Source of the DNA: a virus
Taxonomy: Duplodnaviria; Heunggongvirae; Uroviricota; Caudoviricetes
DNA: 48,774 bases
Strand: one strand, 5' to 3'
Virus record (IMG/VR): IMGVR_UViG_2909267149_000001
Shown here: in pieces, positions 1 to 18,893 of the stretch
Position numbering within the stretch: the stretch's first letter is position 1
Layout: each line of letters begins with the position of its first letter
Made by a program: the position numbers and the translations under genes
Notes under the pieces: generated by a model
The model's database searches: none
The model's input: only the letters and a program-made list of their open reading frames with translations
What the model was told of the DNA's origin: nothing

Positions 1-837
1 ATGCCGTCTCTACGTTCAGCTTACGTTTGTAATTTGTCGCCGGAGTTCCAGCCTCCAAAGCACCATACGCACAAGCTGCCGCTGGTGTTATCTGATGCTT
101 TACAGCGCATTAATGGTCGTGATCTTACGTGTGAGGTTGCGTTCTACGTTAATCAACCGTCAGAGCGGAAACGCCGGATAAACGAGCATCGTCGTCGGGC
201 GATTAATGCTGTGATTGCTGCGATTTTGCACCATGTAAACATCATTTCTAAGCGGGTTCTGGCCAGTGCTGAGGCGTTGGCTGATTTTTGCGGCCTGTCT
301 ACCGTATCCGAAGCTGGGAACAAGTCTATAACGCGCTGTACAAGGGCGTTGTCGCAACTGAAAGAGTTAGGTTTTATTGATTATGAACGTCGCTGGGATC
401 GGGTGAATAAACAGTATTGGCCAGCGAAAATCGAGATTCGTGATCAACTGCTGGAAACAGTTGGTATTACTGAACAAGCATGGAGACGTGCGGTTAGCCA
501 GAAACTTAATTACTTCAATGCGAAGAATAGCGAACGGCTTAAAAAAGCGATAACGGAGGCTGATTATAAGCGTATTGTTATTCAGGAGCAGATGGAGAAT
601 GTATGGCGTCAGAGGAAGACGGCCAGAGAGATAAAGGCAAAACAGAAAGCAGCGGAGAGAGCTGCGCGTCTTGTTCAGGAAAAGGGAGAGGCCGAACTTC
701 GCCATCAAATCACTAGAGAGGTTAGCCAGGAATTTGCTGATGGCATGTATCCTGGTGCTGACCTTGCATATTTACGCTCCCTCGTTGAGCAGCGTTATAA
801 CAGGCTAAGAAAGACCTGGAAATCACTCCAACATTAA
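1..837 (+). CDS. repA: Plasmid replication initiator, IncFII RepA1-like
   Basis: 278-aa basic protein recalled as resembling IncFII RepA1 in architecture; followed by DnaA box and AT-rich region; ORF starts at window base 1 so the true start may be upstream. Confidence 0.55.
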   Translation: MPSLRSAYVCNLSPEFQPPKHHTHKLPLVLSDALQRINGRDLTCEVAFYVNQPSERKRRINEHRRRAINAVIAAILHHVNIISKRVLASAEALADFCGLSTVSEAGNKSITRCTRALSQLKELGFIDYERRWDRVNKQYWPAKIEIRDQLLETVGITEQAWRRAVSQKLNYFNAKNSERLKKAITEADYKRIVIQEQMENVWRQRKTAREIKAKQKAAERAARLVQEKGEAELRHQITREVSQEFADGMYPGADLAYLRSLVEQRYNRLRKTWKSLQH

Positions 838-840
838 CCC

Positions 841-1110
841 ACCTGAATGATGAATCCGGTTTTACCGGAGGATTATCTACGTCGCAATAAAATATCTGTT
901 CAAAAAACAATCTAAATTAATTTTCTCTAAACCTGAACACAGCAAAAATATCGCCTTTACAGGCATCGGCTAATAAAGTTATCCACAGTTTTGATATGTA
1001 TATGCAAATGGTTTTTTATAATAGATGCACTAAACAAATAAATGCAAAATCACTTTCTTTTATTAAAACTTTCTTTATTTAACTTACGCAGGCTTTGCCT
1101 GTGAATATGT
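841..1110. promoter_or_regulatory. Candidate vegetative origin (oriR-like AT-rich region downstream of repA)
   Basis: AT-rich tract directly after repA stop containing a consensus DnaA box. Confidence 0.45.
979..987 (+). promoter_or_regulatory. DnaA box TTATCCACA
   Basis: Exact 9-mer match to DnaA box consensus. Confidence 0.6.
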
Positions 1111-1480
1111 TCGCCCTTGCAGCGAGCTAAAGCTCGCGCCGGTTCGAGTCGCTACGCTCAAATATACCTCCTCCGGCACTTGCCGGAGGCATGGAGCAGC
1201 CTGATCATCCTTTTCGAAACGGCGCGTTTCGAACTATACAAAATCAATTTATATAAGGCCGAAATAAGGCCTACGGCCGGGCTTTGCAGGAGGAAGGGGC
1301 GAGCCTTATCAATAAACGTCGATAAATACGCACACAGTAGCCATCAGAACGCGATAAAACGTAAGAAACATCATTTCCTATTAGACATAGAAAACTTGTC
1401 TTATACGCAATGTAGTAAATTTCTATTGCCACATAGGAAAAGATTTCCTACCATCGTAGATATAATAAATGGAGATGGTT

Positions 1481-1768
1481 ATGGATAAAGATACTGTTTT
1501 AAAAATGTTGAATCCGGCTTGTTTAAAAAAAGCGGATGAATGGGAATCTCCTACATGTGGAGAAGTTCGGGCAGTCATTGGCCTGACCGGAATGAGCGGC
1601 TCGCAGTTGGCCAAAAAACTTGGCTTAAAAGATAGTCGCAATGTTCGCAACTGGCAGATGTTAAAGGAGTCCACATCCAGATCCAGCATTCCGTATGCAG
1701 CCTGGGCGCTGCTGTGTTACTTCGCTGGGTTAGGGTTAATCTTCATTGATAACAAAACAGATGTTTGA
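1481..1768 (+). CDS. Hypothetical small protein, possible HTH
   Basis: ORF with GGAG 5 nt upstream of ATG at 1481; the track start at 1469 is an in-frame alternative. Confidence 0.4.
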   Translation: MDKDTVLKMLNPACLKKADEWESPTCGEVRAVIGLTGMSGSQLAKKLGLKDSRNVRNWQMLKESTSRSSIPYAAWALLCYFAGLGLIFIDNKTDV

Positions 1769-1791
1769 AACATGCAAATATGAGGTTTGTT

Positions 1792-2055
1792 ATGGAACTT
1801 GTACGCAAAACACGCAAAGAGTTCTTGGACCTGTATCGCATGGGAGCTTTCACTTGTGTTGTGGCTACCCAGGACGAAGTGACAAAAAGCTGGCGGCTTT
1901 TTGCTCTCAATAAAAAAGGGATTGCCGTTTTCATTGAAAAAGCCCGTGGTGGTATCCGCGAATGGGCGGGATTGAATTATGTGGCTGATTTTTGCGCAGC
2001 TATGGGGATTCGTCGCTGGGAAGTCCATATGCCAGGAGTAAAGTCACAAAAATAG
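1792..2055 (+). CDS. Hypothetical protein
   Basis: ORF; GAGG 6 nt upstream of ATG at 1792; the track start at 1765 is a TTG. Confidence 0.4.
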   Translation: MELVRKTRKEFLDLYRMGAFTCVVATQDEVTKSWRLFALNKKGIAVFIEKARGGIREWAGLNYVADFCAAMGIRRWEVHMPGVKSQK

Positions 2056-2299
2056 GGCTTTCGCGTCGAAAATGAGGCGAAACTGAAAACGAGATTTCAT
2101 TAACAAATAAGCAACATAAAAAACGGTGGAAAACGCCCAGGAAAACATGATCTTTTGAGCGGATTTTTTAGATCCGACAATGAACGGTGATCCGGTGGTG
2201 CCGATAACGTCCATTATGTTAAATAGCCCCGTTTTTCTTGAAATTATAAATCACAGGTTATATAGTTAGTGATATAAACTACAGGTTATAGGATTGAGC

Positions 2300-2647
2300 A
2301 TGTGGACGGTACTTTTTAGCCAGCGATTTGACGACTGGCTAAATGAGCAAGAAGACGCTCTTCAGGAAAAGGTTTTGGCTGATTTGAAAAAGCTACAGGT
2401 TTACGGACCTGAGTTACCCAGGCCATATGCCGATACCGTAAAAGGTTCTCGGTACAAAAATATGAAAGAGCTTCGCGTTCAGTTTTCTGGCCGTCCGATA
2501 AGAGCCTTTTATGCGTTCGATCCGATTCGCCGGGCCATCGTTCTTTGTGCAGGAGACAAAAGTAACGATAAGCGGTTTTATGAAAAACTGGTGCGTATAG
2601 CTGAGGATGAGTTTGCAGCACATCTGAACACACTGGAGAGCAAGTAA
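2300..2647 (+). CDS. higB: Type II toxin, HigB-2/RelE-family (addiction-module killer protein)
   Basis: ~115-aa protein recalled as matching Gp49/HigB-2-like toxins; AGGA RBS before ATG 2300; 1-nt overlap with downstream XRE-HTH gene (toxin-first order typical of HigBA). Confidence 0.6.
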   Translation: MWTVLFSQRFDDWLNEQEDALQEKVLADLKKLQVYGPELPRPYADTVKGSRYKNMKELRVQFSGRPIRAFYAFDPIRRAIVLCAGDKSNDKRFYEKLVRIAEDEFAAHLNTLESK

Positions 2648-2946
2648 TGAGAACATTAGATGAGGCGATTGCCAGCCGTTCACCGGAAAGCCAGGCGCGA
2701 ATTAAAGAAATGGCAGATGAGATGATTCTTGAGGTCGGCTTGCAGATGATGCGTGAAGAACTCCAGTTATCACAAAAACAGGTTGCTGAGGCGATGGGTA
2801 TAAGCCAGCCAGCAGTAACAAAGCTGGAGCAGCGCGGAAATGATTTAAAGCTGGCGACATTAAAGCGTTACGTTGAAGCTATGGGAGGCAAATTAAGCCT
2901 GGATGTTGAGCTTCCCACAGGAAAACGAATAGCGTTTAACATCTGA
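2647..2946 (+). CDS. higA: Antitoxin HigA-like, XRE-family HTH
   Basis: 99-aa protein with HTH signature (LSQKQVAEAMGISQPAVTKLE); ATGA overlap with the toxin. Confidence 0.65.
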   Translation: MRTLDEAIASRSPESQARIKEMADEMILEVGLQMMREELQLSQKQVAEAMGISQPAVTKLEQRGNDLKLATLKRYVEAMGGKLSLDVELPTGKRIAFNI

Positions 2947-2960
2947 TCAGAACGAATGAT

Positions 2961-2988
2961 AAGCCCCTGTTGCAAAGGGGCTTTTTTG
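2961..2988 (+). terminator. Rho-independent terminator after higA
   Basis: GC hairpin agcccctgttgcaaaggggct followed by a T6 run. Confidence 0.6.
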
Positions 2989-2992
2989 TGCT

Positions 2993-3109
2993 CATAGAAT
3001 TATATAATTATATATTTATATAAAAAGTGCTTTACAGGTGGGAAAAAAATTCCTAAGGTTATACCCGAAACCGAGCGATACCCGCCCTGGTTAAACCGGA
3101 GATAACCCG
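2993..3109 (+). promoter_or_regulatory. Repeated promoter-leader element, copy A (AT-rich palindrome, TTTACA-17bp-TAAGGT, conserved 5' UTR, GGAG SD)
   Basis: Near-identical to copies at 12450-12575 and 19477-19593; ends at the ATG of the 3110 ORF. Confidence 0.6.
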
Positions 3110-3490
3110 ATGAGCATGATTAAAATCCGCAAAAACGCTTTCCTTAAAATTCAAACTATCCTGGCTGGTTCTGTTGGCGTGATTTGCCGTTCTTCCTCAA
3201 GCCGCATCGATGACTGCTACGATGATGAGTATCGTGTGTCCTCATGCGATGAGGCTTTAACCTGGCTGAAGGAGAATCAGGAACGTGCCCAGGTATATCT
3301 GGAAACAGAGAACGGCAATCAGATGCTGCGTATTAGCGGTCGTTATGGATTTGAAACTACATTCATGGCCTATTTTAATCAGGCTTACTTTGACAAGGAG
3401 TTGGCCTGGTACACTGATCGCATGAGCAAAAGCGAGCCAGCCCCGATTACACCGCCGAACAATAAACCATTTTTATTCCTCGTTAAGTAA
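3110..3490 (+). CDS. Hypothetical protein driven by repeated promoter element
   Basis: 126-aa ORF immediately after the conserved leader and SD. Confidence 0.5.
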   Translation: MSMIKIRKNAFLKIQTILAGSVGVICRSSSSRIDDCYDDEYRVSSCDEALTWLKENQERAQVYLETENGNQMLRISGRYGFETTFMAYFNQAYFDKELAWYTDRMSKSEPAPITPPNNKPFLFLVK

Positions 3491-3498
3491 ACACAATG

Positions 3499-3526
3499 CG
3501 CAAAGTGTCATTTTGACACTTTGCGA
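3499..3526. terminator. Perfect 12-bp stem hairpin (cgcaaagtgtca-tttt-tgacactttgcg), candidate terminator or protein-binding palindrome
   Basis: Perfect inverted repeat directly downstream of the 3110 ORF; no T-run. Confidence 0.4.
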
Positions 3527-3593
3527 GTGTTAATATAGGGGGCGTTTGAAGATAGATAACTTATTGTGGGGCAAGCCGATAACTTACATTGGG

Positions 3594-4019
3594 TTAGCTT
3601 GAATAGGTAGTTGGTATTTTGAGCATATGGCCAATCTCTTCGAGATGCTTAGATGGATTCTCCCCAGTCTTACCTTCATGTATTGACGCTATATAGTTCA
3701 AATTTTGAGCTGCCCCAAGAATCTCGGTGGCTGATGGAACAAGACGAAAGCCGATATGTAACTTTTTGATATAGAAAGGTAAAGTGGAATATTTCGCCAT
3801 TAACTGTGCTGCGGAATCTTTTAGATCATGAATGATTTCTGGCTTTAAGTTCGAGCCAGGATTCACTATTTTTGCTTGGTTACATAATAACAGATTGGAT
3901 ATTTTCCCTAGTTGTTCCCTGAATGAAATGTAAGGCTCAATAGCTCCTTTGACGATGAGTTGGCCTAGAACAAAAACACTTACACCAGTGACCACGGTGA
4001 CAAAAGCAGATGAACTCAT
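3594..4019 (-). CDS. Hypothetical protein with hydrophobic N-terminus
   Basis: 141-aa ORF divergent from an HTH gene; N-terminal hydrophobic stretch. Confidence 0.4.
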   Translation of the reverse strand: MSSSAFVTVVTGVSVFVLGQLIVKGAIEPYISFREQLGKISNLLLCNQAKIVNPGSNLKPEIIHDLKDSAAQLMAKYSTLPFYIKKLHIGFRLVPSATEILGAAQNLNYIASIHEGKTGENPSKHLEEIGHMLKIPTTYSS

Positions 4020-4120
4020 TTTTTACCTAAAGCCTAAAGATTGGATTGTTAATACATCTTATTTTGTCGTGAGTGGCTATGTCTAATTTATTGAATATCT
4101 AGGGAAAGGTAGAGGATGTA

Positions 4121-4393
4121 ATGACGGGTTACGAATTGAAATTATGGCGTCGTGGGATGAACTGGACGCAGGAGCGAGCAGCCGAAGAGTTTGGGATATC
4201 GTTGGCTACATATAAGCGATATGAGAAGGGGGAGCCGCCGAGGGTCATTGAGATGGCCATTCGCGTTCTGTCGTTTGACGATATGGTTAAGGATCTTTCA
4301 CACCTTGATAAAGATGCGATTCTGTTAAGGCTGCAAACCCTTGTATGGGAAAAGGTTAAAGTGTCGGCAGAATTGGAACAAGGGATCAAATGA
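4121..4393 (+). CDS. XRE-family HTH transcriptional regulator
   Basis: 90-aa protein with HTH signature (WTQERAAEEFGISLATYKRYE). Confidence 0.55.
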   Translation: MTGYELKLWRRGMNWTQERAAEEFGISLATYKRYEKGEPPRVIEMAIRVLSFDDMVKDLSHLDKDAILLRLQTLVWEKVKVSAELEQGIK

Positions 4394-4442
4394 TCCTTTA
4401 CGGATCGTTTTATGGTGGTGTAATGTAAGCGCCAGAAAGACA

Positions 4443-4469
4443 AAAACCGCCTTGCCGGGCGGTTTTCAG
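4443..4469 (+). terminator. Rho-independent terminator
   Basis: Hairpin accgccttgccgggcggt followed by tttt. Confidence 0.5.
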
Positions 4470-5179
4470 TCTGAAATTTAAATCTTGCTTGGTAGGCTGG
4501 ATTTAAAAAGACACCTCTTGATTGGGGCGGCTTTCTTGCGTCTAAAGATAATCAAATCTTTTTGCGCCTGCAACCCCTTTTTTACTGGTGCCCATTTCAG
4601 ACTCACGCTCGCGTCGTTGTCTTTGCCACTTCGTTGGGTTCGGTGTTTTTGGGCGAAGTGGCGCGCGGGTATGCGTACAAGGGGAAAGTGTGCTGACGCA
4701 AGCCAGGAACAGCGATCTAAACTAAGTCGAGTCTGAGAAAGGCAGGAGTGCGACAACTCGCCTGTGCTCTATGAGCAGAAGAAGGTATATCAGACGACCA
4801 ATGGCATGATTGTGGGCCACAGGGCGCACACGGCGGCGAAGCATTGGAAACGATGTGGAGCTATCTGGTGGCATGAGTTCCGGTACTCGATCTCGAGCTT
4901 TTTTTGATGCTTTTGAGAAGGGGCCGGAACTCCGGTAAAGGGCACCCTGTATGGGGGGAGGGGGGGTTGTGTCTGAAGGGTGGTTATCGGTTATGGTGGA
5001 ATTATGATGCGTAGAAAAGCGAGTTTGCTGCAAGCTATTGGGTCCATTATTTCTTTGTTTCCGGCAGTTGATCATTTTCGTCATATGGCGACACGTTCGA
5101 GTATGGGCTTGGCGCGTGACGCTGACGCTATTCGAAAGGATTTTCAGAAAGTCTCTGGTGTTGATAAGAGAGAAAAGAG

Positions 5180-5199
5180 TAAGGGGCCGTAGCCCCTTG
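5180..5199 (-). terminator. Terminator hairpin downstream of antirepressor gene
   Basis: aaggggccgtagcccctt hairpin just 3' of the minus-strand stop at 5203. Confidence 0.4.
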
Positions 5200-5202
5200 T
5201 AG

Positions 5203-6345
5203 TTATGGTCTGCTTTTCTGTGCCAGCTTATCAGCACATGTTTTTATCAGATCCTGTAGTGTCCTGGCTGGCAGGTTTGCATCCAGTACGCTGAGTATGC
5301 TGTTGTGATCAGCCTGGTCGACTACTTTGCCTGTCGGTGGTAGTAGCTTGAGCTGAGGATTCAGGTTTTCGTCAAAGCTGATAAGTGCTCTGGCGTTTCT
5401 GAGCAGATCAAGAAGTAAGGCTGATATCACATTTTCCTGAGTCATTGCTGGCAGACTTAGCGCCGCTTTGGTTTTCCCTGTTGCCTTGTCAAACTCCTTG
5501 ATTAGTTCCTTCCTGTAGTTCGGTTCCGTTAATAGCCGATTATGCTCTGTTGCCGCGCGGATAATCGTTTTTTCCTGGTACAGTCGTTTAGCCAGATCGC
5601 GCTCGTACTGTGTTTTTAACACGCTGCTGATAGCGTTAAAGGCTTCAATGTAGGCCAGCTTGATATCCTTCACGCCTGGACCGTCGATACTTTCCATGAG
5701 CAAGGTAAATCCGTCTTTTGTCATGCGATAGATTGTTATTTCGCGGTCGCTTCCTTCCAACGGTCGTTGCTCTTTAAAGAAATGACGCGCCGCAGCTGTG
5801 CGAGGAATGCGTAACGCATCGATGGCCATAACGATGGAATTGTTTGTGGTGCTGAATGCCTGGGCAACATCGGCTGAGGTTGTGAGTGGCTCGTTGTTGC
5901 ACACTTTAATGTAAAACATTGGTTTGGCGTTGAGCGTATCGACAACCTCACGAGCATTGTTTGGTGAGACGGTTACGGTCGCGGCCGTTTGTGCGTTCTG
6001 GTTGAAATAGCAGTCTTCCAGTTTTTCGAACACATCCCAAGCCTGATCGGTTTCGAGCATTTTGGCGTGACGGGCTGCTCCGTGTTCGGTCCAGAGAATT
6101 AGGGAGCGGGCATTTTTACCAACTAACCCGATTGTTTCAGGTCTGTTCTTGAACTCGCGTAATTCGTTTTTTTCAATTTTAAAGTAATGCTTTCCGGCTA
6201 TGAATCGCGTCGTGTTGTTCAGAAAGTTATCAGAAATGTTTTTGATTTTTGTTCCGTATAACTGCGCCAGAAGTTCACTAGTGATAACGGGGATCTGGTT
6301 ATGCAGGATAGGCTGTAGGGTGTTAACGGTCGGAAGCGTTTTCAT
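5203..6345 (-). CDS. Phage antirepressor (Ant-like; KilA-N/ORF6N-like N-terminus and Rha-like regulatory domain)
   Basis: 380-aa protein with motifs recalled from antirepressor families; GGAGG RBS; translationally coupled to an upstream small ORF. Confidence 0.55.
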   Translation of the reverse strand: MKTLPTVNTLQPILHNQIPVITSELLAQLYGTKIKNISDNFLNNTTRFIAGKHYFKIEKNELREFKNRPETIGLVGKNARSLILWTEHGAARHAKMLETDQAWDVFEKLEDCYFNQNAQTAATVTVSPNNAREVVDTLNAKPMFYIKVCNNEPLTTSADVAQAFSTTNNSIVMAIDALRIPRTAAARHFFKEQRPLEGSDREITIYRMTKDGFTLLMESIDGPGVKDIKLAYIEAFNAISSVLKTQYERDLAKRLYQEKTIIRAATEHNRLLTEPNYRKELIKEFDKATGKTKAALSLPAMTQENVISALLLDLLRNARALISFDENLNPQLKLLPPTGKVVDQADHNSILSVLDANLPARTLQDLIKTCADKLAQKSRP

Positions 6346-6533
6346 TTTGTACCTCCCATAACTACTTTGGTTACGAGGGAGATTTTTGCGTCAGAAACAG
6401 CGTTATCGTTGCTGGCGATGCGCATAGCTTCGCGCTCGATGATTTCAGCCAGGCGGAGTTTATCGGCGTATGAGGCTTTCTTGAGAAGGATCTTTACGAG
6501 GTTGACGTAATAGTCATGGGGTAAGTTTGTCAT
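6342..6533 (-). CDS. Small protein translationally coupled to the antirepressor (icd-like position)
   Basis: 63-aa ORF whose TGA stop overlaps the antirepressor ATG (ATGA). Confidence 0.4.
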   Translation of the reverse strand: MTNLPHDYYVNLVKILLKKASYADKLRLAEIIEREAMRIASNDNAVSDAKISLVTKVVMGGTK

Positions 6534-7418
6534 GGTGATAGTTCCCTTAAAGGTTAAGGATACTCACCACCGTCTGGTTCCAATCATTGGGTGGTGAGAC
6601 GTACAGGGTTGGAACTACCGGTCACCATGGAATCCGGCGAGTCTTACGACTCCCCCGCACGCCCCACCATAATTTGGGTGTAGCAGTGCTTTACGCATAA
6701 AAAAACCGCTAACGCGGTATGCGCCATGATGATTATCGGGGTTCCAATCCCGGCCGTAGATTTTGCTACGGCTCGGAAAGTGTCCACCAATGGCGCATTC
6801 ATGTCAATACGGCGGGATTTTAACAGAGACAACCACATAGCGTGGGTTTATTGGTAGGCAGAAACAAAAAAACCGCCCTATTGAGGACGGTTCTTTCGTG
6901 CTGATCGGATTCGCGGTCCTTTCAGCATTACGTTGTTGTATAAACAACCACGCAAGCACAAGCAGCAAGTTAATTTTACCCAAAAGGTAATAATAGTCCA
7001 CTATTATGCTTCAAAAAATTGTGGTTCTTGTTGTGCCTGCAAACTCACAGATTGTGGGTAGGTTACTGATTTTGTGAAAATAAACGAGTTTTTTCGTTTA
7101 ATTTCTTTCCTATTACTAATCTTAAAATAATCGTAAAATACCTGTGGACCTTCCCGCCGATTCGCACCCGGGCACCGACTTTAGGGGAGGATTCTCCGTT
7201 GCCGTACATGCAAGCACAAGCAGCCGTGCTTGCTCTCGCGTTGTTTTCGTCGGTGGGGATGCCGTGAAACGGCCTGTAAGGGCCATACAATGAAAAAATA
7301 CTGTATGTGTATTTTTATCGTTGTTACTGGAGCTTTGTTTACGCCACATGGGGAGGGTTGGAAGATTACTGATAACGCTCTGAATGTGACGATAAACATT
7401 AGCAGCAAGTAGCGATTA

Positions 7419-7442
7419 GGCCCCTTCGGGGGCCTTTTTTAT
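7419..7442 (+). terminator. Rho-independent terminator on plus strand
   Basis: aggccccttcgggggcct hairpin followed by T6. Confidence 0.6.
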
Positions 7443-7450
7443 GGTTGAAT

Positions 7451-7633
7451 TTAAACTCTGGAGCGCATTAAGCCTTTCAGAACTGCTTCACGTACCCATT
7501 CTGGCCTGGTGGATAGCAGGGCAAATAAGCGACCAGCTTGCAGCCGTTTGAGGTCGGTTAGACGAGTTTTCAGTAACCGTGTATATTGTTGCTCGGACAT
7601 AACAAATTCCCCTTGTTGTGTCGCGACGGCCAA
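7451..7633 (-). CDS. Hypothetical small protein
   Basis: 60-aa ORF upstream of the antirepressor leader. Confidence 0.3.
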   Translation of the reverse strand: MAVATQQGEFVMSEQQYTRLLKTRLTDLKRLQAGRLFALLSTRPEWVREAVLKGLMRSRV

Positions 7634-7662
7634 CAGTTGGCGCTGGAGGCCGTCACCTTCTC

Positions 7663-7917
7663 TTACTTCTGGTTGTATTGAGCCTTGAGTAACTCAAAAG
7701 ATTTTGTCAGCACTTCTTTCAATGACATATCCATTGAGCTGGCGAACGTTTTGTACTCGCGTTTAAATTCAGGGTCGACGTTAAACGCCATTTGTGCCCC
7801 ACCTGATTTGGTTCTGGTTGGCGTTTCAGTCGGGTCGAAAACCTGCGGTTGTTCGATCGATGGCGGTACGCCTTTGCTGTTCTTCTTTGGTGGTTTTGAT
7901 GGTGCGGCCATGTGCAT
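7663..7917 (-). CDS. Small partition/regulatory protein, ParG-like (possible ribbon-helix-helix)
   Basis: 84-aa protein directly downstream of a ParA-type ATPase in the same operon; disordered basic N-terminus and structured C-terminus typical of ParG-like centromere binders. Confidence 0.45.
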   Translation of the reverse strand: MHMAAPSKPPKKNSKGVPPSIEQPQVFDPTETPTRTKSGGAQMAFNVDPEFKREYKTFASSMDMSLKEVLTKSFELLKAQYNQK

Positions 7918-7954
7918 CCCCTCTTATATAAATCTATAAAACTATAATTATATA

Positions 7955-8608
7955 TTACGCGGCAGTAGTCAGAGCCTCAAGCTGGTTGATAATCCCCTGA
8001 ATAACGTCGTCTGCCTTTTTGCGTGGCGCAACGTATGAGCACTCAATGAGGCTTAAGCCCTTATCCTGAGCTTTGCTCAGAGCTGGCTTGTGGGGAATGT
8101 ACTTATCGACAACAAAGTATGGCGTATTAGCCAGGTACTCTTGGGCTTCAATATAGTCAGCTTCGTTTTCAGCCGCGCCGGAAAACACCATGCAAATTTT
8201 CTTGATTGGTACACCCTTTTTAACGATGCCGTGAGCTGTGTTAACGGTGGTTTCCAGGTCATCGGTAGAGAATCTGGTTGGCAAAATAACCATATCCAGA
8301 AATTCAGAGAGCTTCGGTACTGATTCAGATGCGTAGGCACCGCCATCTACGATAACCAGGTCGTATACTTCTGATTCGATGATTTTCTGGACTTGTGATG
8401 GTGTGCCGCACGGCTGTGCCGCGATTGCTGGTTCGATATTGTTGGCCATTCTGCGTTGTACCCAACGCGTTACCGTTCCGTTAAGCACATCCATATCGAT
8501 CAGGCATACATTCCAGCCAGCCTTTGCATAAGCAACTGCTAAAGCACGAGCAATGGTTGATTTGGTTACGCCGCCTTTTCCGTTGAAAATACCTACAGAT
8601 ATAGTCAT
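7955..8608 (-). CDS. Partition ATPase, ParA/ParF family (Walker-type)
   Basis: Deviant Walker A GKGGVTKST near the N-terminus; start at 8608 preferred, 8623 is the alternative upstream ATG. Confidence 0.8.
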   Translation of the reverse strand: MTISVGIFNGKGGVTKSTIARALAVAYAKAGWNVCLIDMDVLNGTVTRWVQRRMANNIEPAIAAQPCGTPSQVQKIIESEVYDLVIVDGGAYASESVPKLSEFLDMVILPTRFSTDDLETTVNTAHGIVKKGVPIKKICMVFSGAAENEADYIEAQEYLANTPYFVVDKYIPHKPALSKAQDKGLSLIECSYVAPRKKADDVIQGIINQLEALTTAA

Positions 8609-8623
8609 TTGTCGAGACTCCAT

Positions 8624-8758
8624 GTGTTTGATTATATAATTCTATAAATCTATATTTATAGAATGAGGTAAGCATAACCAACTTTTTGGCGGATGAAAAG
8701 CGTTTTATATAATTATATAAATCTATAATCATATAAGCGGGCGTTAGCCCGCTTGCAG
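8624..8758. repeat. AT-rich repeat array upstream of the partition operon (candidate centromere/operator)
   Basis: Two blocks of tatataattatataaatctata-type repeats containing the TATAATTATA palindrome. Confidence 0.5.
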
Positions 8759-9133
8759 TCAGAGGTCAGCTATCGTTGATATCAGTTGATTTGCTAGCTG
8801 TCGCTGTTTACGTGAGAGGGTTAGAGCAGCTTCTGAGCGGTCGCTAAGAGGGGTGTTTTCATCGAGAATCATGAGGCATACAGAAATAATAGCCCTGTTA
8901 TATGCCATCAATGACTGGCACAGCTTCGATACCGCTGGCACATCGTATTGTAAGGCCGTTTTGAGGCAGACTTTTTGTTCTGATGCCAGATGAAGGATAG
9001 ATTCTATCCAGTCGATATCTTTCTCATTATCAATGAGTTGGCATAACATACACTCAATCGCTATGTTCAACGCTTGGATTTCGATTCCAGCAGTGATCAG
9101 AGTTTCGTTTTTATTGGCTGTATGTAATTCCAT
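8759..9133 (-). CDS. Hypothetical protein (early-left gene downstream of repressor)
   Basis: 124-aa ORF; an operator-like palindrome lies between it and the repressor gene. Confidence 0.4.
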   Translation of the reverse strand: MELHTANKNETLITAGIEIQALNIAIECMLCQLIDNEKDIDWIESILHLASEQKVCLKTALQYDVPAVSKLCQSLMAYNRAIISVCLMILDENTPLSDRSEAALTLSRKQRQLANQLISTIADL

Positions 9134-9159
9134 GCGTAGCCTCTTTTATACTTTTACAT

Positions 9160-9172
9160 GTTGTCAAAACCA
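9160..9172. promoter_or_regulatory. Operator palindrome CCACA-N3-TGTGG (distal, OL-like)
   Basis: Perfect 13-bp palindrome ccacaaaatgtgg identical in half-sites to the sites in the repressor/cro intergenic region. Confidence 0.5.
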
Positions 9173-9225
9173 CAAAATGTGGTTTTTTTGAGCGTAGAAA
9201 TGCACGGCTTTCGCCGTGCTGTGTA

Positions 9226-9882
9226 TCATAACCAGTTGACAACACTAACTACGCGGCCAAGAACTTTATAACGCTTAAATTCCTCGTTATTCAGATGCTT
9301 AGTGTTCATTTCAGCATCCCTTTCGGTTGACAGCATAACAGCATTGTCACCCGGTATGACTCTACAGTGCCTCAAAACAACCAGGCCATTTCTGTCTTCA
9401 AGGGCATAGATCCCCTCATGAATCTCTGTATCGTCTGTATTAATCAGGACTTGGGAGCCAGGGGATATTGTTGGTGACATTAACTCATCGTTGCTCTGGA
9501 GAACTGACAGAGACGATGGGTTGATGTTCTTGCTTCGTAGAATCTCCTGTTCTATCGCCAGCACTGGCTTTTCTCCGGCGTGCGATGCTATGTCATTTTT
9601 TATAGCTACAAGCCCAGGAATAACAGGAGCGTTAGTATTCTGGGGTGGGAACGGGTTATCTGTTAAGCACGCGATATAAGGCGCTGATGCTTTCAGGGCG
9701 TGCGCGATTTTCTTGATGGCAGGTATAGATGGTTGTCTTAATCCGGCCTCATAGTTCTGCAAGGTGCTTAAGCCTATTCCAGTGACTTGCTGGAGATCTC
9801 CGGCAGTCATGCCGGATTGTTTCCGTAGAGTCTGAATGCGCAGACCTATTTCTTTCTTGATGTTCTCGTCGTTGCTTTTCAT
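9226..9882 (-). CDS. CI-like repressor (N-terminal XRE HTH, C-terminal S24 LexA-like peptidase domain)
   Basis: 218 aa; N-terminal HTH; C-terminal domain with candidate Ser (LMSPTISPGS) and Lys (YKVLGR) dyad; divergent from a Cro-like gene across an operator region. Confidence 0.8.
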   Translation of the reverse strand: MKSNDENIKKEIGLRIQTLRKQSGMTAGDLQQVTGIGLSTLQNYEAGLRQPSIPAIKKIAHALKASAPYIACLTDNPFPPQNTNAPVIPGLVAIKNDIASHAGEKPVLAIEQEILRSKNINPSSLSVLQSNDELMSPTISPGSQVLINTDDTEIHEGIYALEDRNGLVVLRHCRVIPGDNAVMLSTERDAEMNTKHLNNEEFKRYKVLGRVVSVVNWL

Positions 9883-9920
9883 GTCTCATCAATCGTGAAT
9901 GGTGGGTTATTTATACATTA

Positions 9921-10036
9921 CCACATTTAGTGGTTTTCACATGGTAAGACGAGAGGTGGACCACAAATAGAAGGTTATTTTTTGTTTCGCCCATTGAAAA
10001 ACTCACAATATGTGGTTTTAATACCACATATTGTGG
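9921..10036. promoter_or_regulatory. Operator region (OR-like) with three CCACA-N3-TGTGG sites
   Basis: ccacatttagtgg (9921-9933), tcacaatatgtgg (10003-10015), ccacatattgtgg (10024-10036) between divergent repressor and cro-like genes. Confidence 0.6.
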
Positions 10037-10055
10037 TTTAACTGGAGTTCGTTAA

Positions 10056-10550
10056 ATGACCTTTCAGGAGTGGGTTGACGAAAATGGAGGCCAAATTGGT
10101 GTTGCCAGAAAGTTTGGCTTTACGTCATCACTGATTGGTGCCTGGTATCGCTTCGAGAGATTCCCTCGTGCGGATAACCTGACGCTGCTGGTGGCGTATT
10201 CGGAAGGCCGGATTAACGTCCAGCAATGGGCGGCAGATTTTGCCGAACGTCAGCGCCAGCGTAGCGATGGCACATCGGTTCGGCAGAACAAGATCAAAGG
10301 GAATCTCCCTGTTAACTGCTTATCAAGGCTGAAAGCGGTTTTCTCTGAGCTGGGGATGCCTGCGGAGCGTTGCAATCTACGCGGTCCGCGATTCATTGCT
10401 CGCTGGAAACACTCACACGTAACCGTTTCAGAGGTTCGTGATGCGATTGCCATGCTGGAGTTTAAGAATAAAGATTCCAGCGATATCGAGCTGATTCATA
10501 AGGAGATTAGCAACGCCCGGCGTTCAGCACTTGGGAGGCTTGAGGAATGA
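10056..10550 (+). CDS. Cro/CII-like early regulator (putative)
   Basis: First rightward gene opposite the CI-like repressor; GGAG RBS. Confidence 0.35.
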   Translation: MTFQEWVDENGGQIGVARKFGFTSSLIGAWYRFERFPRADNLTLLVAYSEGRINVQQWAADFAERQRQRSDGTSVRQNKIKGNLPVNCLSRLKAVFSELGMPAERCNLRGPRFIARWKHSHVTVSEVRDAIAMLEFKNKDSSDIELIHKEISNARRSALGRLEE

Positions 10551-11062
10551 TGATTCTGGCCTTCTTTGGTGATAATCACCAGATTCAATCGAAGGTGGTG
10601 CACTACCTTGATCAAACGATTAAAGGATTTGTTATCGATCATATTGATAACGATAGCAAACATCTATCTGTAGATCAGAAAATTGGACGTGTGCAGCGAC
10701 TGGTTGCCAGCCGTAACAGACGTGACACCGTAACAGTAGTCACGGGGATAACGGAGGTCATGGAGTACCAGATGTTGCTGCATCGTGGAGCTGTTTTCTG
10801 CGTTCTTCCTGGCATTCTGCCAGCAATTCTTGCTCGTGGTTTGGTCCCTATTGATGAGTCGTTTTTATATGTAACCCCAAGCCGTTCCCTTCTGGATACG
10901 GAGGCGAAGCGTCGCATTTATATGATGCCGGACGAGGCATTTTCTGAATGTTACCGCCGTGAAATGAGGTTGGGTAAACGAGAAGTGTCTGTTGTTCGTG
11001 ATGGCAGGTTTTTAAGAAGCCGCACGGTGAAAAGCACCAGAAATGACGGGGGCCATCAATGA
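10547..11062 (+). CDS. Hypothetical protein
   Basis: 171-aa ORF, overlaps neighbours by 4 nt (operon-like). Confidence 0.45.
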   Translation: MMILAFFGDNHQIQSKVVHYLDQTIKGFVIDHIDNDSKHLSVDQKIGRVQRLVASRNRRDTVTVVTGITEVMEYQMLLHRGAVFCVLPGILPAILARGLVPIDESFLYVTPSRSLLDTEAKRRIYMMPDEAFSECYRREMRLGKREVSVVRDGRFLRSRTVKSTRNDGGHQ

Positions 11063-11292
11063 GTAGTTATGTTCGCGGTGCTGCGATGCATTGCCAGAAT
11101 CCCCAATTCTGGCGCTTTCTGACCAGTAAAACAGGGAAGAACGTTTCAAACAGTTCTGAGGCCTCTGTGATTCTGCGTGAGTTTTGCGGGATCTCATCCC
11201 GTAAAGAGCTGGCAAAGAACTACGCGGCCAGAAGCATGTATGTCCAGTTAATCAACGAGTTCAACCTCTTTATCAATGGTAAGGGGCGCTGA
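11059..11292 (+). CDS. Hypothetical protein
   Basis: 77-aa ORF with coupled overlaps on both sides. Confidence 0.4.
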   Translation: MSSYVRGAAMHCQNPQFWRFLTSKTGKNVSNSSEASVILREFCGISSRKELAKNYAARSMYVQLINEFNLFINGKGR

Positions 11293-11696
11293 TGAACGGA
11301 CGTACACCAACGAAGAAAGAGAAACTTTATATACAAGCGGTGCTCACTCACGTGGGTTGCATAGCTTGCATTATTGATGGCCGTGAAATTGAGAATCCAG
11401 AGCTGTGGACGGAGCTACATCACGATCCTGATTACGGCAGCGTTGATGAGAATTGCCACTTCCATAGCTTTGGGTTGTGCGCACCACATCATCGCGGTGT
11501 TGTGCCTGGTGGTGGGCGCGTGCCTCCGCATATTGCCGTTCGTCACCCTCCCCTGAGTAATTGTGCTCGCTTTGTTGAGCGTTATGGCACCGATGAATTT
11601 TTGTGTGCGCAGACGTGGGAGCTGTTGCCGCAGTCAGTTAAAGACGAAATTGGGTTTGATCTTAGTCTTGGTGAAGTACCAGGGGATACCAAATGA
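11292..11696 (+). CDS. Cys/His-rich protein, possible HNH/Ref-like zinc-finger nuclease
   Basis: Clustered Cys and His pairs (GCIACII, HH, CHFH, CAPHH); family assignment from memory only. Confidence 0.3.
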   Translation: MNGRTPTKKEKLYIQAVLTHVGCIACIIDGREIENPELWTELHHDPDYGSVDENCHFHSFGLCAPHHRGVVPGGGRVPPHIAVRHPPLSNCARFVERYGTDEFLCAQTWELLPQSVKDEIGFDLSLGEVPGDTK

Positions 11697-12025
11697 GATA
11701 TACCGGCTTTCGCAAACCAGCGACCAGGAAAAGCAAATACGGCAATAAAAAAACTGTTGTCGATGATATCGCTTTTGATAGCAAAAAAGAGGCTGATTAC
11801 TACTGCGAACTGAAGCTACTGAGAAAAGCTGGCCGCGTTGTGACGTTTCTTATGCAGGTGCCTTTTCATCTGCCTGGTGGTGTCGTTTATAAACTTGATT
11901 TCATGGTGTTTTATGACGATGGGACGATTGATTGTGTCGACACTAAAGGTGTGCGAACAGACGTCTACATCATGAAGAAAAAGCAGGTAGAGGCGCTTTA
12001 TCCCGTCACGATACGGGAGATCTGA
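11693..12025 (+). CDS. DUF1064-like phage protein
   Basis: N-terminal SKYGNKKT and FDSKKEA motifs recalled from DUF1064. Confidence 0.4.
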   Translation: MRYTGFRKPATRKSKYGNKKTVVDDIAFDSKKEADYYCELKLLRKAGRVVTFLMQVPFHLPGGVVYKLDFMVFYDDGTIDCVDTKGVRTDVYIMKKKQVEALYPVTIREI

Positions 12026-12028
12026 ACA

Positions 12029-12406
12029 GTGAGACGCGATCTGGATAGCTTGTTTGAGCTATGGGCGCTGTGGGTGCGCAATGGCTGCAACGCCCGTAGC
12101 GGTTTCGCGTCGATGTTAGAAATGATGATGGTTACGCGCTGCCAGTTTACCGGAGGGGGCGGCGCACCAAATGACTCACTGGAAACCAGTATCGAGGGAG
12201 CGGTGACGGCCCTCACGGTAGTTGATGAGACTGCGGCGCTGGTTGTCCGAATTGAATACGGGGCGTGGGAGATTCGGGGCCTCGACATAAATGCACCGCA
12301 TATTGATAAAGCCCACGCCCTTTCTCTTAGTCTCAGACAGTATCGCCGGAAGCTGGCAAAAGCCAGGGCGTATGTTGTCGACTATTTGAAAAAGCGAAGA
12401 GAGTAA
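12029..12406 (+). CDS. Putative late-gene regulator, Q-like antiterminator (PF06530-like)
   Basis: 125-aa protein with LFELWALW motif resembling the LERWGAW motif of small Q proteins; sits immediately upstream of promoter-leader copy B; GTG start. Confidence 0.35.
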   Translation: MRRDLDSLFELWALWVRNGCNARSGFASMLEMMMVTRCQFTGGGGAPNDSLETSIEGAVTALTVVDETAALVVRIEYGAWEIRGLDINAPHIDKAHALSLSLRQYRRKLAKARAYVVDYLKKRRE

Positions 12407-12449
12407 AAGTGTCATTTTGAGCTGTTTTGATGGTGTGTAGACATCGGGA

Positions 12450-12575
12450 ACATCGAAAATCTATAAATATATAATTATAGATTTATATAAAAAGTGCTTT
12501 ACAGGTGGGAAAAAATTTCCTAAGGTTATACCCGAAACCGAGCGATACCCGCCCTGGTTAAACCGGAGAAATCTG
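12450..12575 (+). promoter_or_regulatory. Repeated promoter-leader element, copy B
   Basis: Near-identical to copies A and C; ends at the ATG of the 12576 ORF. Confidence 0.6.
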
Positions 12576-13643
12576 ATGAATAAACAAGAAATTATTTCTG
12601 ACTGGATCAACAACCCTAACAGCCTGTTAAGCACTGATACTGGCTACCTATTACGCCATGTTAATGGTCGTATGGTCAAAAGCGATGAGCACGAAACCTT
12701 TTTCTTTGTTGAAGACGATGGGCGCATCTATGAGGATGGTTACTCTTATGAAGCCCAAACTGGTTGTATCCCTGCGGAGCTGGTGGACGTAACAGAAGAT
12801 CTGCGCAAAGCATGGCTTGAACAGCAGCAGCGCGGAGATGATTACGTAAACACCTATCAGGAACGCCAGAACGCGCGTCTTGCCCGATATATTGCTCGTG
12901 CAGAAAAAGCCAGAAAAGAAGGTGCGGTAGCGCATAAGCGAGCGCATGACCTGTTGGATGTGATCCCGTTAGGCCAGCCGATTTTAGTTGACCATTATAG
13001 CGCGAAAGGCCATCGCCGCCGTTTGTCTAAAGCTGATGCGTTATTAAGAAAAGCGTTTGTTGAATGCGAAAGTAAAGCATCACACTACGAGAGCAAAGCC
13101 GCAGGTGTTGGTCGTAATGGAATTTCGTCTGATGATCCTGATGCGCTATTTAAGTTGCTTCGTAAGCTGCAAGGCTGCATGAAGTCACACGTCAAAATGA
13201 AGGCCGCAAATAAGGCCATTCGCAAATACAAAAAAGACCAATTACAGCAGCTTTCTGCATTAATCGATCTCAGGTTTACAGAAAGCGAAGCCAAAGAGTT
13301 ACTGGCCGGAGATTTCTGTGGGCGCATCGGATTCCCTTCATACGCACTGAGCAACAATAACGCCGAAATCAAACGACTACAGAGCCGTATTAAGGAGCTT
13401 GAATCGGTCAAGTCTGTAACAGGAGCACAGCGCGAAGAATACGACGGCTTTTCTATGGAGATAGATCCAGAGGATAACCGCATCCTGTTTTATTTCCCTG
13501 GCAAACCAGAGGCAAACATTCGTTCGCTGCTTAAATCACGCGCCTTTAAGTGGAGTCCAACCCGTAATGCATGGGTTCGCAAGATTACTCCAAACGCCCT
13601 GGCTGATGCCCGATATCTAAAAGAATCGCTATTGAAAGCCTGA
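12576..13643 (+). CDS. Hypothetical 355-aa protein (first gene behind promoter-leader copy B)
   Basis: Long ORF with coiled-coil-like K/E-rich central region. Confidence 0.5.
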   Translation: MNKQEIISDWINNPNSLLSTDTGYLLRHVNGRMVKSDEHETFFFVEDDGRIYEDGYSYEAQTGCIPAELVDVTEDLRKAWLEQQQRGDDYVNTYQERQNARLARYIARAEKARKEGAVAHKRAHDLLDVIPLGQPILVDHYSAKGHRRRLSKADALLRKAFVECESKASHYESKAAGVGRNGISSDDPDALFKLLRKLQGCMKSHVKMKAANKAIRKYKKDQLQQLSALIDLRFTESEAKELLAGDFCGRIGFPSYALSNNNAEIKRLQSRIKELESVKSVTGAQREEYDGFSMEIDPEDNRILFYFPGKPEANIRSLLKSRAFKWSPTRNAWVRKITPNALADARYLKESLLKA

Positions 13644-13720
13644 CAGTAAGCCTACGGCGGGACGTCTCCCGCCGTATATAGAATTATATATTTATATAAA
13701 TGTATAAGGATGCCTCGACA

Positions 13721-14002
13721 ATGAAACGCAAAATTATTAACCCCCAAGATGTGATTAATTTCCTGACCGATCACCCATGTTCAAAAGTGGACGTAATCGC
13801 GGAGCACATTGGTGTGTCGCAGAACTCTATGCGTTGCAGACTGAGAAGCATGGTTGCCGAAGGACAGATAACAACCAGGAAAATAAATGGTTGCCTGTAC
13901 TACTCCGCTAAACCGGAATTGCCATTTGGCATGAATCCTAACTCCATGTTGTTTAACACCTTATTAGCCAAAGTTAAGCCGTTGAGAGGGGCTGTGGCAT
14001 GA
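13721..14002 (+). CDS. Small putative winged-helix DNA-binding protein
   Basis: AAGGA RBS before ATG 13721; the track start at 13700 is the alternative; preceded by the AT-rich palindromic motif. Confidence 0.4.
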   Translation: MKRKIINPQDVINFLTDHPCSKVDVIAEHIGVSQNSMRCRLRSMVAEGQITTRKINGCLYYSAKPELPFGMNPNSMLFNTLLAKVKPLRGAVA

Positions 14003-14364
14003 GCATCAAAACACATACCGGAATAATCATTACCAATGATGGTGAGAAAAAAGTGAAGTTGCGCGAGACGCCGACAACCTGGTGTGTTGGTCCGAAAGAA
14101 ACATATCGCAAGGAAGATGGCCGTCGTTGTGGGGCACCACTTTCCCGCCGTCGCCTCCTTTTGAGCACGATAAAACCTATCGGGCAGGTTGAGCAACCAA
14201 CGACTCCGGTAACGAAGATTTCAGACAAGAGTCTGGCAAACCTGATCGCCGATGCGGACAAGGTGCTGGAGCGGAACACCCCAGTAGCCGATGAAGAATG
14301 GTGGCAGGATTTCCGAGCCGCAATGCTAGAGCTTCAGGAACGTCGTCGGGAGGAGTTGAAGTGA
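13999..14364 (+). CDS. Hypothetical protein
   Basis: 121-aa ORF in operon context. Confidence 0.4.
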   Translation: MSIKTHTGIIITNDGEKKVKLRETPTTWCVGPKETYRKEDGRRCGAPLSRRRLLLSTIKPIGQVEQPTTPVTKISDKSLANLIADADKVLERNTPVADEEWWQDFRAAMLELQERRREELK

Positions 14365-14552
14365 GCAAGAAAAATGCCGGATGGGTCAGGCCAATGAAGG
14401 CGAATAAACATCATTATTTTAATGAAGGTGAAGTGACCAGCATTTGCGGCCGTTGGATGTATTTTGGTGATTACCGTGAGCCAGACACTTTTGAGAGTCC
14501 TGATGATTGCGTGTCTTGTCGCCGGAAATTGAACAAGGTGGCTTCTAAATGA
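14361..14552 (+). CDS. Small Cys-containing protein (zinc-ribbon-like)
   Basis: GGAGG RBS before GTG 14361; two Cys pairs (CGRW and CVSC). Confidence 0.35.
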   Translation: MSKKNAGWVRPMKANKHHYFNEGEVTSICGRWMYFGDYREPDTFESPDDCVSCRRKLNKVASK

Positions 14553-15232
14553 AAGAACGTGGTGTTGTTTTTAATGACGATATGGTTAGGGCCATCCTCG
14601 AAGGAAGGAAGACGCAGACTCGCCGACCTGTAAAAAATGTCAGGGCCGATAACTGCCTGGTTATCCGTAAACCGACAAAGAAACGCAATGGTGTCTATAC
14701 CCACGTTATGGATGCACCTGAACATGGTTTATGCCCGTTCGGTAACGTTGGTGATCGCATATGGGTCCGTGAAGCGTGGGCGATATTAGGCAATGAGGAT
14801 GGTTGCAGTGTGGACTGGAACGACAACCTTTGTCGTGGCGATGAGAAGAACGCAGCAAGGATTTATCGGGCCAGTTGTGAGCAAAAACCGGGGGATTATG
14901 GCTTATGGTCGATACCCGATGATGCCGACTGGAAGCCTCACACTGTGAATGAAAAGTTTGATGGCGGGTGGTGTCCATCAATTCACATGCCGCGCTGGGC
15001 TTCGCGTATTTTGCTGGAAATTACCGACGTGCGTGTGGAGCGGCTGCATGACATGAGCGAGGCAGATGCTAAAGCAGAAGGCGCAACTCCGGCGACGTAC
15101 AAGATTACGCCACCTGAAGCTGTTTATCGCGTTGGCTTTGGTGATATCTGGCGCGGTATTTACGGGCAAGAGAACTGGCTATCTAACCCGTGGGTATGGG
15201 TAATTGAGTTTAAGCGTATTCAGGAAGCATAA
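14549..15232 (+). CDS. ASCH-domain-like protein
   Basis: N-terminal ILEGRKTQTRR approximates the ASCH GxKxxExR motif; C-terminal WVIEFK. Confidence 0.45.
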   Translation: MKERGVVFNDDMVRAILEGRKTQTRRPVKNVRADNCLVIRKPTKKRNGVYTHVMDAPEHGLCPFGNVGDRIWVREAWAILGNEDGCSVDWNDNLCRGDEKNAARIYRASCEQKPGDYGLWSIPDDADWKPHTVNEKFDGGWCPSIHMPRWASRILLEITDVRVERLHDMSEADAKAEGATPATYKITPPEAVYRVGFGDIWRGIYGQENWLSNPWVWVIEFKRIQEA

Positions 15233-15234
15233 CT

Positions 15235-16689: not shown

Positions 16690-16720
16690 AGCCCTGCCTT
16701 TTTCGGCGGGGCTTTTTTTT
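16690..16720 (+). terminator. Rho-independent terminator upstream of the lysis cassette
   Basis: gccctgcc-tttttc-ggcggggc hairpin (one G-U pair) followed by T8. Confidence 0.5.
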
Positions 16721-16733
16721 AACGAGGATTTCA

Positions 16734-18826: not shown

Positions 18827-18893
18827 GTTGTGTTTGCTGTAGAGCTGGCCAGCGTTATGACTGCCGGAGATAAGCGCCGGAGGCACAACTAAC

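Follow-up and report, generated by a model that had tools for sequence, protein, structure and literature searches.

We analysed positions 2,993 to 4,393 of the IMG/VR virus record IMGVR_UViG_2909267149_000001 (Caudoviricetes), a stretch of DNA of 48,774 nucleotides that is called the window at its full length. The window is a complete, myovirus-type Escherichia coli phage-plasmid of ~48.8 kb: it carries an IncFII-type RepA, HigBA, a small ParA and an ant operon with a C4-like antisense RNA, as well as myovirus head and tail genes. It is near-identical to plasmids such as NZ_AP025749.1 and CP099184.1, and its relatives include the 48.5-kb plasmid of Escherichia coli ATCC 25922 and the Yersinia phages vB_YpM_39, 41 and 44. 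Another candidate relative, pSLy3, was rejected, as it is an unrelated 114-kb element of the SSU5 type. Literature searches on the element family and on DUF3560 (see below) yielded nothing useful.

The features of the region are collected in Table 1. Three open reading frames (ORFs) lie where a preliminary description, made from the sequence alone, had placed them: orf126 and HTH90, which are co-directional, and between them a gene for a 141-aa protein on the opposite strand. Our reading is that this 1.4-kb stretch is probably a composite, in which a conserved backbone operon (orf126, a stem-loop and HTH90) has been parted by the later insertion of a cassette that carries the 141-aa gene.

Table 1. 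Features in and around the orf126–HTH90 region; positions are those of the window.
Feature	Position	Strand	Remarks
Intrinsic terminator of the upstream higBA	2961–2983	+	8-bp stem and T-run (terminator scan); left border of the region
AT-rich array	2992–3023		8-bp period, T(A/C)TA boxes; 5′ end of leader copy A
Promoter-leader copy A	2992–3113	+	structured 5′ leader reaching the orf126 start codon
orf126	3110–3490	+	126 aa; conserved backbone gene
Perfect 12-bp stem, 3-nt loop	3499–3510 / 3514–3525	+	between orf126 and HTH90
Extended -10-like motif TGTTAATAT	3528–3536	+	from the intergenic sequences of 15 loci; putative HTH90 promoter
Inserted cassette	3537–4111		575 bp replacing 8 bp (TGTGCGAG) of the empty-site form
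141-aa accessory gene	3594–4019	-	N-terminal transmembrane helix, four-helix bundle, conserved C-terminal IPTTY motif
Sigma-70-like promoter site	4056–4085	-	TAGACA, 18-nt spacer, TAAGAT; 9 of 12 positions, consensus match only
HTH90	4121–4393	+	90 aa; small XRE-family regulator, backbone gene
GC-rich hairpin, T-runs on both sides	4441–4468		likely bidirectional terminator, ending the HTH90 transcript
Second copy of the 15-mer AAAGTGTCATTTTGA	12406–12420	+	one hairpin arm, loop and 3 nt

We found orf126 in 61 plasmids of PLSDB, all non-mobilizable and nearly all of ~47–52 kb. Among complete E. coli genomes, 71 of 5426 carry it. The hairpin and HTH90 accompany it in all 61 related plasmids, and relatives from Salmonella and Klebsiella, in which the proteins are 65–74% identical, have orf126, the hairpin and HTH90 in the same order. 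Two of the three genes, kept in every relative found, are therefore core genes. The cassette with the 141-aa gene is present in 11 of the 61 plasmids and in 12 of the 71 orf126-carrying E. coli genomes (~17%), with at least 99.3% identity in every carrier, and its GC content (0.387 over 3537–4110; 0.39 for the gene itself) is below that of the element (0.445). The preliminary description had taken all three genes for one small accessory island and proposed to check whether the block varies among relatives, conservation in all of them being what would speak against the island: the variability holds for the 141-aa gene, and the conservation for orf126 and HTH90.

The break points of the cassette, 3536/3537 and 4111/4112, were located by BLAST against two related loci (L002 and L003) and by direct sequence comparison. 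They put it between a conserved TGnTAATAT motif and the ribosome-binding site of HTH90, which the latter retains from the backbone (GAGGA, 4112–4116). The empty site is extant in the ATCC 25922 plasmid and in five viral contigs, where HTH90 follows directly after the hairpin, on the same strand as orf126 and with its own Shine-Dalgarno sequence, 67–69 nt behind orf126. Over all insert-free loci, the gap between the two genes is 67–78 nt, as compared to 634 nt in the window. Within the cassette, a direct repeat (GATAACTTATTGTGGG, 3555–3570, and GATAACTTACATTGGG, 3578–3593, 23 nt apart) occurs just past the stop codon of the 141-aa gene.

The same site has received other DNA. In the three Yersinia phages it is occupied by an unrelated 323-bp inverted-repeat element. 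In vB_YpM_41 (locus L003, 4357–4679) the 323 bp are non-coding, have terminal inverted repeats of ~27 bp (GGGGTTCCGTGGGAATTTCTGCGATAA) and lie at the start codon of the HTH gene, with the target GCTATG duplicated on both sides; the element looks like a miniature inverted-repeat transposable element. The position is thus a recurrent landing spot, found empty, with the 141-aa cassette or with the inverted-repeat element. As these insertions part HTH90 from its likely promoter, they constitute natural variants in which the role of HTH90 could be tested.

Morons of temperate phages are autonomous gene cassettes inserted between backbone genes. The presence or absence among collinear relatives and the sharp junctions that define such cassettes are both found here. 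Like a moron, the cassette consists of one reversed gene with its own promoter-like site and a GC content under that of the backbone, is present or absent among otherwise near-identical relatives and encodes a predicted small inner-membrane protein; unlike morons, its homologues reside mostly on conjugative plasmids and not in prophages. It was inserted in reverse orientation, exactly between the -10-like motif and the HTH90 ribosome-binding site, and may be expressed as a moron, from its own signals, in the plasmid state. Behind the 141-aa gene, nothing but the backbone hairpin in its - strand reading looks like a terminator. As a side effect, the insertion would set the inserted gene and the backbone promoters to convergent transcription. 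In sum, the finding is one of ordinary mobile-element mosaicism, a backbone operon interrupted by a moron without assignable function.

The hairpin behind orf126 was described before as a perfect 12-bp stem; the stem is indeed perfect, and it ends at 3525 instead of 3526. Folded as RNA, 3499–3525 reaches -21 kcal/mol (z = -4.0), and none of 200 shuffled sequences folds as well. Across ten variants, compensatory double changes occur in four of 13 pairs and 94.6% of the cells are paired, with 0–1 pairs showing compensatory changes in slid controls. The stem measures 12–16 bp among relatives, and complementarity is kept even at outer positions where the sequence itself is not conserved. Changes in one arm alone give a G·U pair on the + strand in five cases and a mismatch in one. 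Directly 3′ of the stem, the -10-like motif is kept in all lineages, as TGTTAAAAT or TGATAAAAT in the divergent relatives; the window's version reads as an extended -10 element, with putative promoter activity. The compensatory changes and the G·U pairs on the + strand favour a + strand RNA stem-loop, possibly with a second role as DNA operator. An intrinsic terminator is not indicated on the + strand, where the stem is followed by AGUGUUAAUAU and not by a U-tract; the terminator scan flags the - strand reading only.

Intercistronic stem-loops, such as the REP type and the hairpins of the puf operon, stabilise the upstream mRNA or attenuate read-through in polycistronic operons. The hairpin considered here resembles them in its 12–16 bp stem between two co-directional genes, in the missing canonical U-tract, in the compensatory changes and in the tolerance of the coding strand for G·U pairs. 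It differs from them by being a perfect DNA palindrome adjoining a promoter-like motif, which makes an operator role equally possible. In the + strand mRNA, the most likely role of the stem-loop would be to uncouple orf126 from HTH90, either by stabilising the 3′ end or by attenuation. A promoter of its own, of the extended -10 type and directly behind the stem-loop, is probable for HTH90 too, so that the palindrome could at the same time be the operator of HTH90.

One could go further and suppose that the 27-bp palindrome is mainly a DNA operator, by which dimeric HTH90 represses its own promoter. Such a function is compatible with an RNA role, and we hold it to be possible although the less probable of the two. 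It would fit the symmetric changes of the palindrome equally well, and the 5-to-1 excess of G·U pairs that speaks for RNA comes from related sequences and is only suggestive; both points count against the stem-loop interpretation. Moreover, the palindrome immediately precedes the conserved TGnTAAAAT-like motif and an HTH gene, its core half-site, AAAGTGTCA, shows conservation, and in one relative (L018) the two arms have changed in concert. A half-site is also found elsewhere: the 15-mer that the preliminary description reported as shared with 12406–12420 occurs exactly twice in the window, at 3502 and 12406, the latter copy 39 nt upstream of promoter-leader copy B. Shuffled sequences give a mean of 0.26 matches if up to two mismatches are allowed, and a second copy free of mismatches is much less probable than that. 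Against an operator stand the pairing kept over the whole 12–16 bp, unconserved outer positions included, and the single-arm changes, which are + strand G·U pairs in five of six cases. Furthermore, the element has only one full palindrome; no other copy was found, the exact half-site at 12406 is not part of a full palindrome, and no comparable palindrome occurs upstream of the distant HTH90 homologues. The RNA stem-loop, with or without a second role as operator, consequently remains the favoured interpretation.

The 141-aa protein has the hydrophobic N-terminus that was described earlier, in the form of a single segment (residues 5–23; Kyte-Doolittle mean over 19 residues of 2.23), which falls within one long helix (residues 4–46) of the structure model. 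Its uncharged N-terminus and Lys24 suggest, by the positive-inside rule, an N-out, C-in topology, albeit as a weak prediction; the protein would then be anchored in the inner membrane with the four-helix bundle in the cytoplasm. It belongs to PHROG 7512 (full-length profile match, E = 3e-74), and its family comprises 37 clusters, all from Enterobacterales wherever the source names an organism. In addition to the carriers of the whole cassette, 333 further enterobacterial plasmids match the coding part alone, with 60–80% nucleotide identity, and are mostly conjugative. Altogether, 344 plasmid records match the gene, 263 of which are conjugative.

The neighbours of these homologues vary: ParE/Phd and Abi_2 in some instances, sitABCD on ColV plasmids (e.g., pECOS88), while phage D6 and a P1-like plasmid have humD and phd/doc there. 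No neighbour is conserved beside the homologues or has a Pfam or PADLOC assignment, and no HTH partner is found. It follows that the head-to-head layout with HTH90 is an accident of insertion.

As to function, the most likely role of the 141-aa protein would be a membrane function that protects the host or the plasmid, for instance by excluding incoming DNA or phage. Superinfecting phage is kept out by small membrane proteins such as HK97 gp15, P22 SieA and T4 Imm; the 141-aa protein differs in that neither its sequence nor its fold resembles any known exclusion protein. That it is a defence or exclusion factor appears rather unlikely to us, and it is likewise a long shot that its family represents a membrane-anchored determinant of exclusion or defence, consisting of a single gene and not described before, which would be shared by the 344 enterobacterial plasmid records, D6, the P1-like plasmid and the element in the window.

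Alternatively, the protein may not be protective at all. It might contribute to plasmid fitness or maintenance, be an immunity protein of the orphan kind, or be a membrane protein of mild toxicity that is carried along with addiction modules. Almost all homologues are plasmid-borne, most of the matching records being conjugative as said, and they stand repeatedly beside toxin-antitoxin or partition genes (ParE/Phd, phd/doc, ParA, sopAB). These roles are nevertheless improbable as well: no partner gene is conserved beside the homologues, the protein matches no immunity or toxin family, and by the (weakly) predicted topology its folded part would be cytoplasmic.

The preliminary description noted a promoter-leader in front of orf126, as one of two copies. 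The leader stands, and the copies are three: near-identical sequences of ~115 nt at 2992–3113, 12459–12580 and 19476–19597, each conserved up to the ATG of another gene (orf126, the gene for a 355-aa DUF3560 protein, and an 89-aa ORF, respectively). The leader RNA folds with z = -2.8, and the inner hairpin and the blocks GAAACCGAGCGATA and CGCCCTGGTTAAACCGGAGA are invariant among the copies. A Salmonella relative (L043) also has three copies (shared core at 30433, 38245 and 45642), identical among themselves and different from those in the window at ~12 positions, a pattern that implies concerted evolution. As the leader heads two other operons in addition, the three are probably switched together, and they may be part of an early or establishment programme of the element. 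Pairing of the C4-like antisense RNA (6587–6674) with the shared leader was considered and rejected, its duplex energy being no better than with shuffled leaders (fraction 0.06).

Each leader copy is headed by an AT-rich array of T(A/C)TA boxes separated by 4-bp spacers. This repeat family (D1) has 11 registers at eight loci (2992–3023, 7924–7955, 8632–8663, 8705–8736, 12451–12490, 13676–13715, 18340–18379 and 19476–19507), all with the 8-bp period, and two of the arrays are directly upstream of parA. The layout resembles the operator/centromere arrays of small type Ib partition proteins, which suggests a binding protein; the 84-aa gene at 7663–7917 (- strand), which has no family match, is the obvious candidate. 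Dispersed sites of an operator- or centromere-like kind include the P1 C1 operators, the sites of the omega protein of pSM19035 and the dispersed sopC sites of N15, and such sites couple partition or immunity proteins to many promoters. The arrays in the window are similarly dispersed, upstream of parA and before the orf126 leader, while their repeat sequence is unrelated to those systems. A tRNA gene (18510–18582, + strand; 67 bits in Rfam) is located just downstream of one array.

The product of orf126 matches PHROG 8090 over its full length (E = 6e-89), and an exhaustive profile search gathered 39 representative proteins of its family. In the structure model (predicted local distance difference test score, pLDDT, of 77), an alpha/beta domain (residues ~8–107) is followed by a low-confidence C-terminal tail that ends in PFLFLVK. 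The linker and end motif (residues ~109–126) are encoded by 3440–3487. Many distant members share this plan, in which the domain is joined by a variable acidic or proline-rich linker to a short hydrophobic C-terminal motif (NVVSLCAYR in those members). The end motif may be a docking peptide for a partner, and the protein could be a cytoplasmic adaptor that combines a globular alpha/beta domain with a flexible tail.

Distant contexts bear on the gene as well. In an Enterovibrio genome, an orf126 homologue precedes, by ~500 nt and on the same strand, a relative of the DUF3560 protein (BLASTP E = 1e-31); the 355-aa protein of the window is the one encoded behind leader copy B. Elements of marine gammaproteobacteria have a relative of the window ORF 1469–1768 after the orf126 homologue, and in a Vibrio phage the homologue occurs among early-type genes, adjoining NinG and an MT-A70 methylase. 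Along with the shared promoter-leader, these contexts place orf126 in a coordinated gene programme of the phage rather than among lysogenic-conversion cargo.

HTH90 was correctly recognised before as an XRE-type helix-turn-helix (HTH) protein: it scores 29.8 bits with Pfam HTH_3 (PF01381; gathering cutoff 23) and 27.6 bits with HTH_31 (cutoff 27), and it matches PHROG 6962 over its full length (E = 2e-45). It is akin to small regulators of the XRE/Cro-C1 type (HTH_3; RstR-type, MqsA, HipB, HigA) in its N-terminal XRE HTH, in its length of ~90 aa and in its place directly 3′ of a perfect palindrome and a -10-like motif. It differs from RstR, MqsA and HipB in its scores, which are far under the family cutoffs: with the RstR family of repressors (NCBIfam NF041951) it reaches 34.1 bits against a cutoff of 80, and over the HTH part only; similarity to the antitoxin HTH domains of MqsA, HipB and Y4mF is weak, and the C-terminal 40 residues have no match. 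No function is assigned to PHROG clusters 8090, 7512 or 6962. Downstream of HTH90, the hairpin at 4441–4468 is invariant across relatives; the terminator scan flags its - strand, and the + strand sequence is AAAAACCGCCTTGCCGGGCGGTTTT.

Homologues of HTH90 with 53–57% identity lie directly upstream of Septu-like PtuA/PtuB genes, which PADLOC identifies with E = 8e-196 and 2e-93, and in another, plasmid-like contig a homologue is located upstream of an Mrr_cat nuclease gene (loci L025, 4001–6716, and L023, 4001–5307). These neighbours are a lead and constitute no evidence on the locus in the window.

Several points weigh against the account as given so far. Promoter activity, the function of the stem-loop and the time of expression are predicted from sequence throughout, and no good + strand promoter for HTH90 was seen within 4020–4120, either by eye or in the promoter scan. 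For orf126, no function emerges from the Pfam, NCBIfam, PADLOC and PHROG scans, and its model has no fold match. The 141-aa protein has no Pfam, NCBIfam, PADLOC or fold match that would give a function; an exclusion or defence role is argued just from its architecture and accessory status, and PADLOC finds nothing.

Of the remaining explanations, the one offered in the preliminary description, a cassette of regulator and effector that would serve abortive infection or superinfection exclusion (the 141-aa gene with HTH90, in one accessory island with orf126), is very unlikely. Indeed, the two genes stand head to head across a 101-bp region with a promoter-like site, the 141-aa gene is variable among relatives, and distant HTH90 homologues adjoin the Septu and Mrr-like genes mentioned above. 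The divergent pair is, however, a product of the insertion: in 50 related plasmids without the 141-aa gene, HTH90 is conserved 67 nt behind the orf126 hairpin and on the strand of orf126. The two core genes speak against a joint island, and the 141-aa homologues, which elsewhere lack a conserved HTH partner, against a fixed partnership. As for defence, no anti-phage family of PADLOC matches any of the three proteins: in PADLOC-DB v2, orf126 and the 141-aa protein have 0 matches and HTH90 has only mad1, at E = 0.026.

A toxin-first type II toxin-antitoxin system made up of orf126 and HTH90 in the manner of higBA, with HTH90 as the antitoxin and the palindrome as its operator, is equally improbable: although both are small co-directional genes kept together over a large evolutionary distance in a plasmid-maintenance region, and HTH90 has its weak antitoxin similarities (at scores far under the cutoffs), the genes neither overlap nor abut but leave 67–78 nt with a 12–16 bp stem-loop and a -10-like motif, orf126 matches no known toxin family or fold and has a long, low-confidence and probably disordered tail, the promoter-leader is common to two phage operons, and in Enterovibrio and a Vibrio phage no homologue of HTH90 or of ORF 1469 follows the orf126 homologue. 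The toxin-antitoxin and the regulator-effector explanations thus each fail tests applied to them here, and the composite of backbone operon and inserted moron is the reading we retain.

Immediately behind HTH90, positions 4394–4985 form an unannotated, non-coding block that is present in 61 of 61 relatives and is 88–91% identical where the flanking proteins are only 65–74% identical; single-base indels in the alignment argue against coding. RNAalifold, applied to ten variants of ~4470–4985, yields 171 pairs with 99.1% of the cells paired and seven compensatory pairs, as compared to 0–2 in slid alignments, and only one of 500 shuffles reaches seven. The seven fall in two helices, one of which is a hairpin with a GAAA tetraloop, and one variant lacks a 50-nt stretch that spans a whole hairpin module. 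The consensus energy is -173 kcal/mol for the + strand versus -116 kcal/mol for the - strand. A match of a 20-mer from the block to metagenome locus L059 was discarded as a chance occurrence inside what reads as unrelated sequence. An Rfam scan of positions 1–20000, with E up to 1, found nothing inside 2993–4393 or 4394–4990.

We consider it rather likely that a new structured RNA of ~0.5 kb, on the + strand at about 4470–4985, is real. A functional tie between this candidate RNA and HTH90 is doubtful. In its widest form, orf126, the stem-loop and HTH90 would make up the 5′ half of a unit and the RNA its 3′ half, controlled by HTH90 or co-expressed with it; if true, this would be a class of large non-coding RNA in enterobacterial phage-plasmids, a prospect to which we give little credence. 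Somewhat less improbable, and still tentative, is that at least one of the two larger proposals holds in full, either the exclusion or defence family of the 141-aa protein or the RNA unit linked to HTH90.

Other features were observed further downstream. A variable slot (4980–5222) between the RNA-like block and the ant gene holds a 62-aa ORF (5004–5192) in the window and unrelated proteins of 211–264 aa in relatives (L004, 5780–6519; L017, 1480–2136; L018, 5159–5803; L019, 1231–2025), which have no Pfam or PADLOC match; it is in this slot that the true hot spot of accessory genes in the neighbourhood lies. The ant operon (5203–6533, - strand) comprises a 63-aa ORF and a 380-aa ORF6N/Rha antirepressor, upstream of which Rfam identifies a C4 antisense RNA (84 bits) and isrK (6587–6674 and 6699–6785, both on the - strand), along with a sub-threshold match to the c4-a1b1 target (39.2 versus 46.7 bits). 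The C4 RNA and the antirepressor are a P1/P7-type, immI-like module. Between the ant operon and the par genes, ryfA is matched over its full length (7144–7440, + strand; 142 bits, E = 5e-37).

The value of the region is mainly corrective, in that what was taken for an accessory island is routine mosaicism. For the biology of these phage-plasmids, this means that orf126 and HTH90 are to be treated as backbone genes, driven by the leader like two other operons, and not as cargo; the only true cargo in the region is one small membrane-protein gene. Members of its family are common on E. coli plasmids of clinical relevance, namely ColV/IncFIB types and P1/D6-like phage-plasmids. The most promising lead from the analysis is the conserved and apparently structured ~0.5-kb RNA next door.

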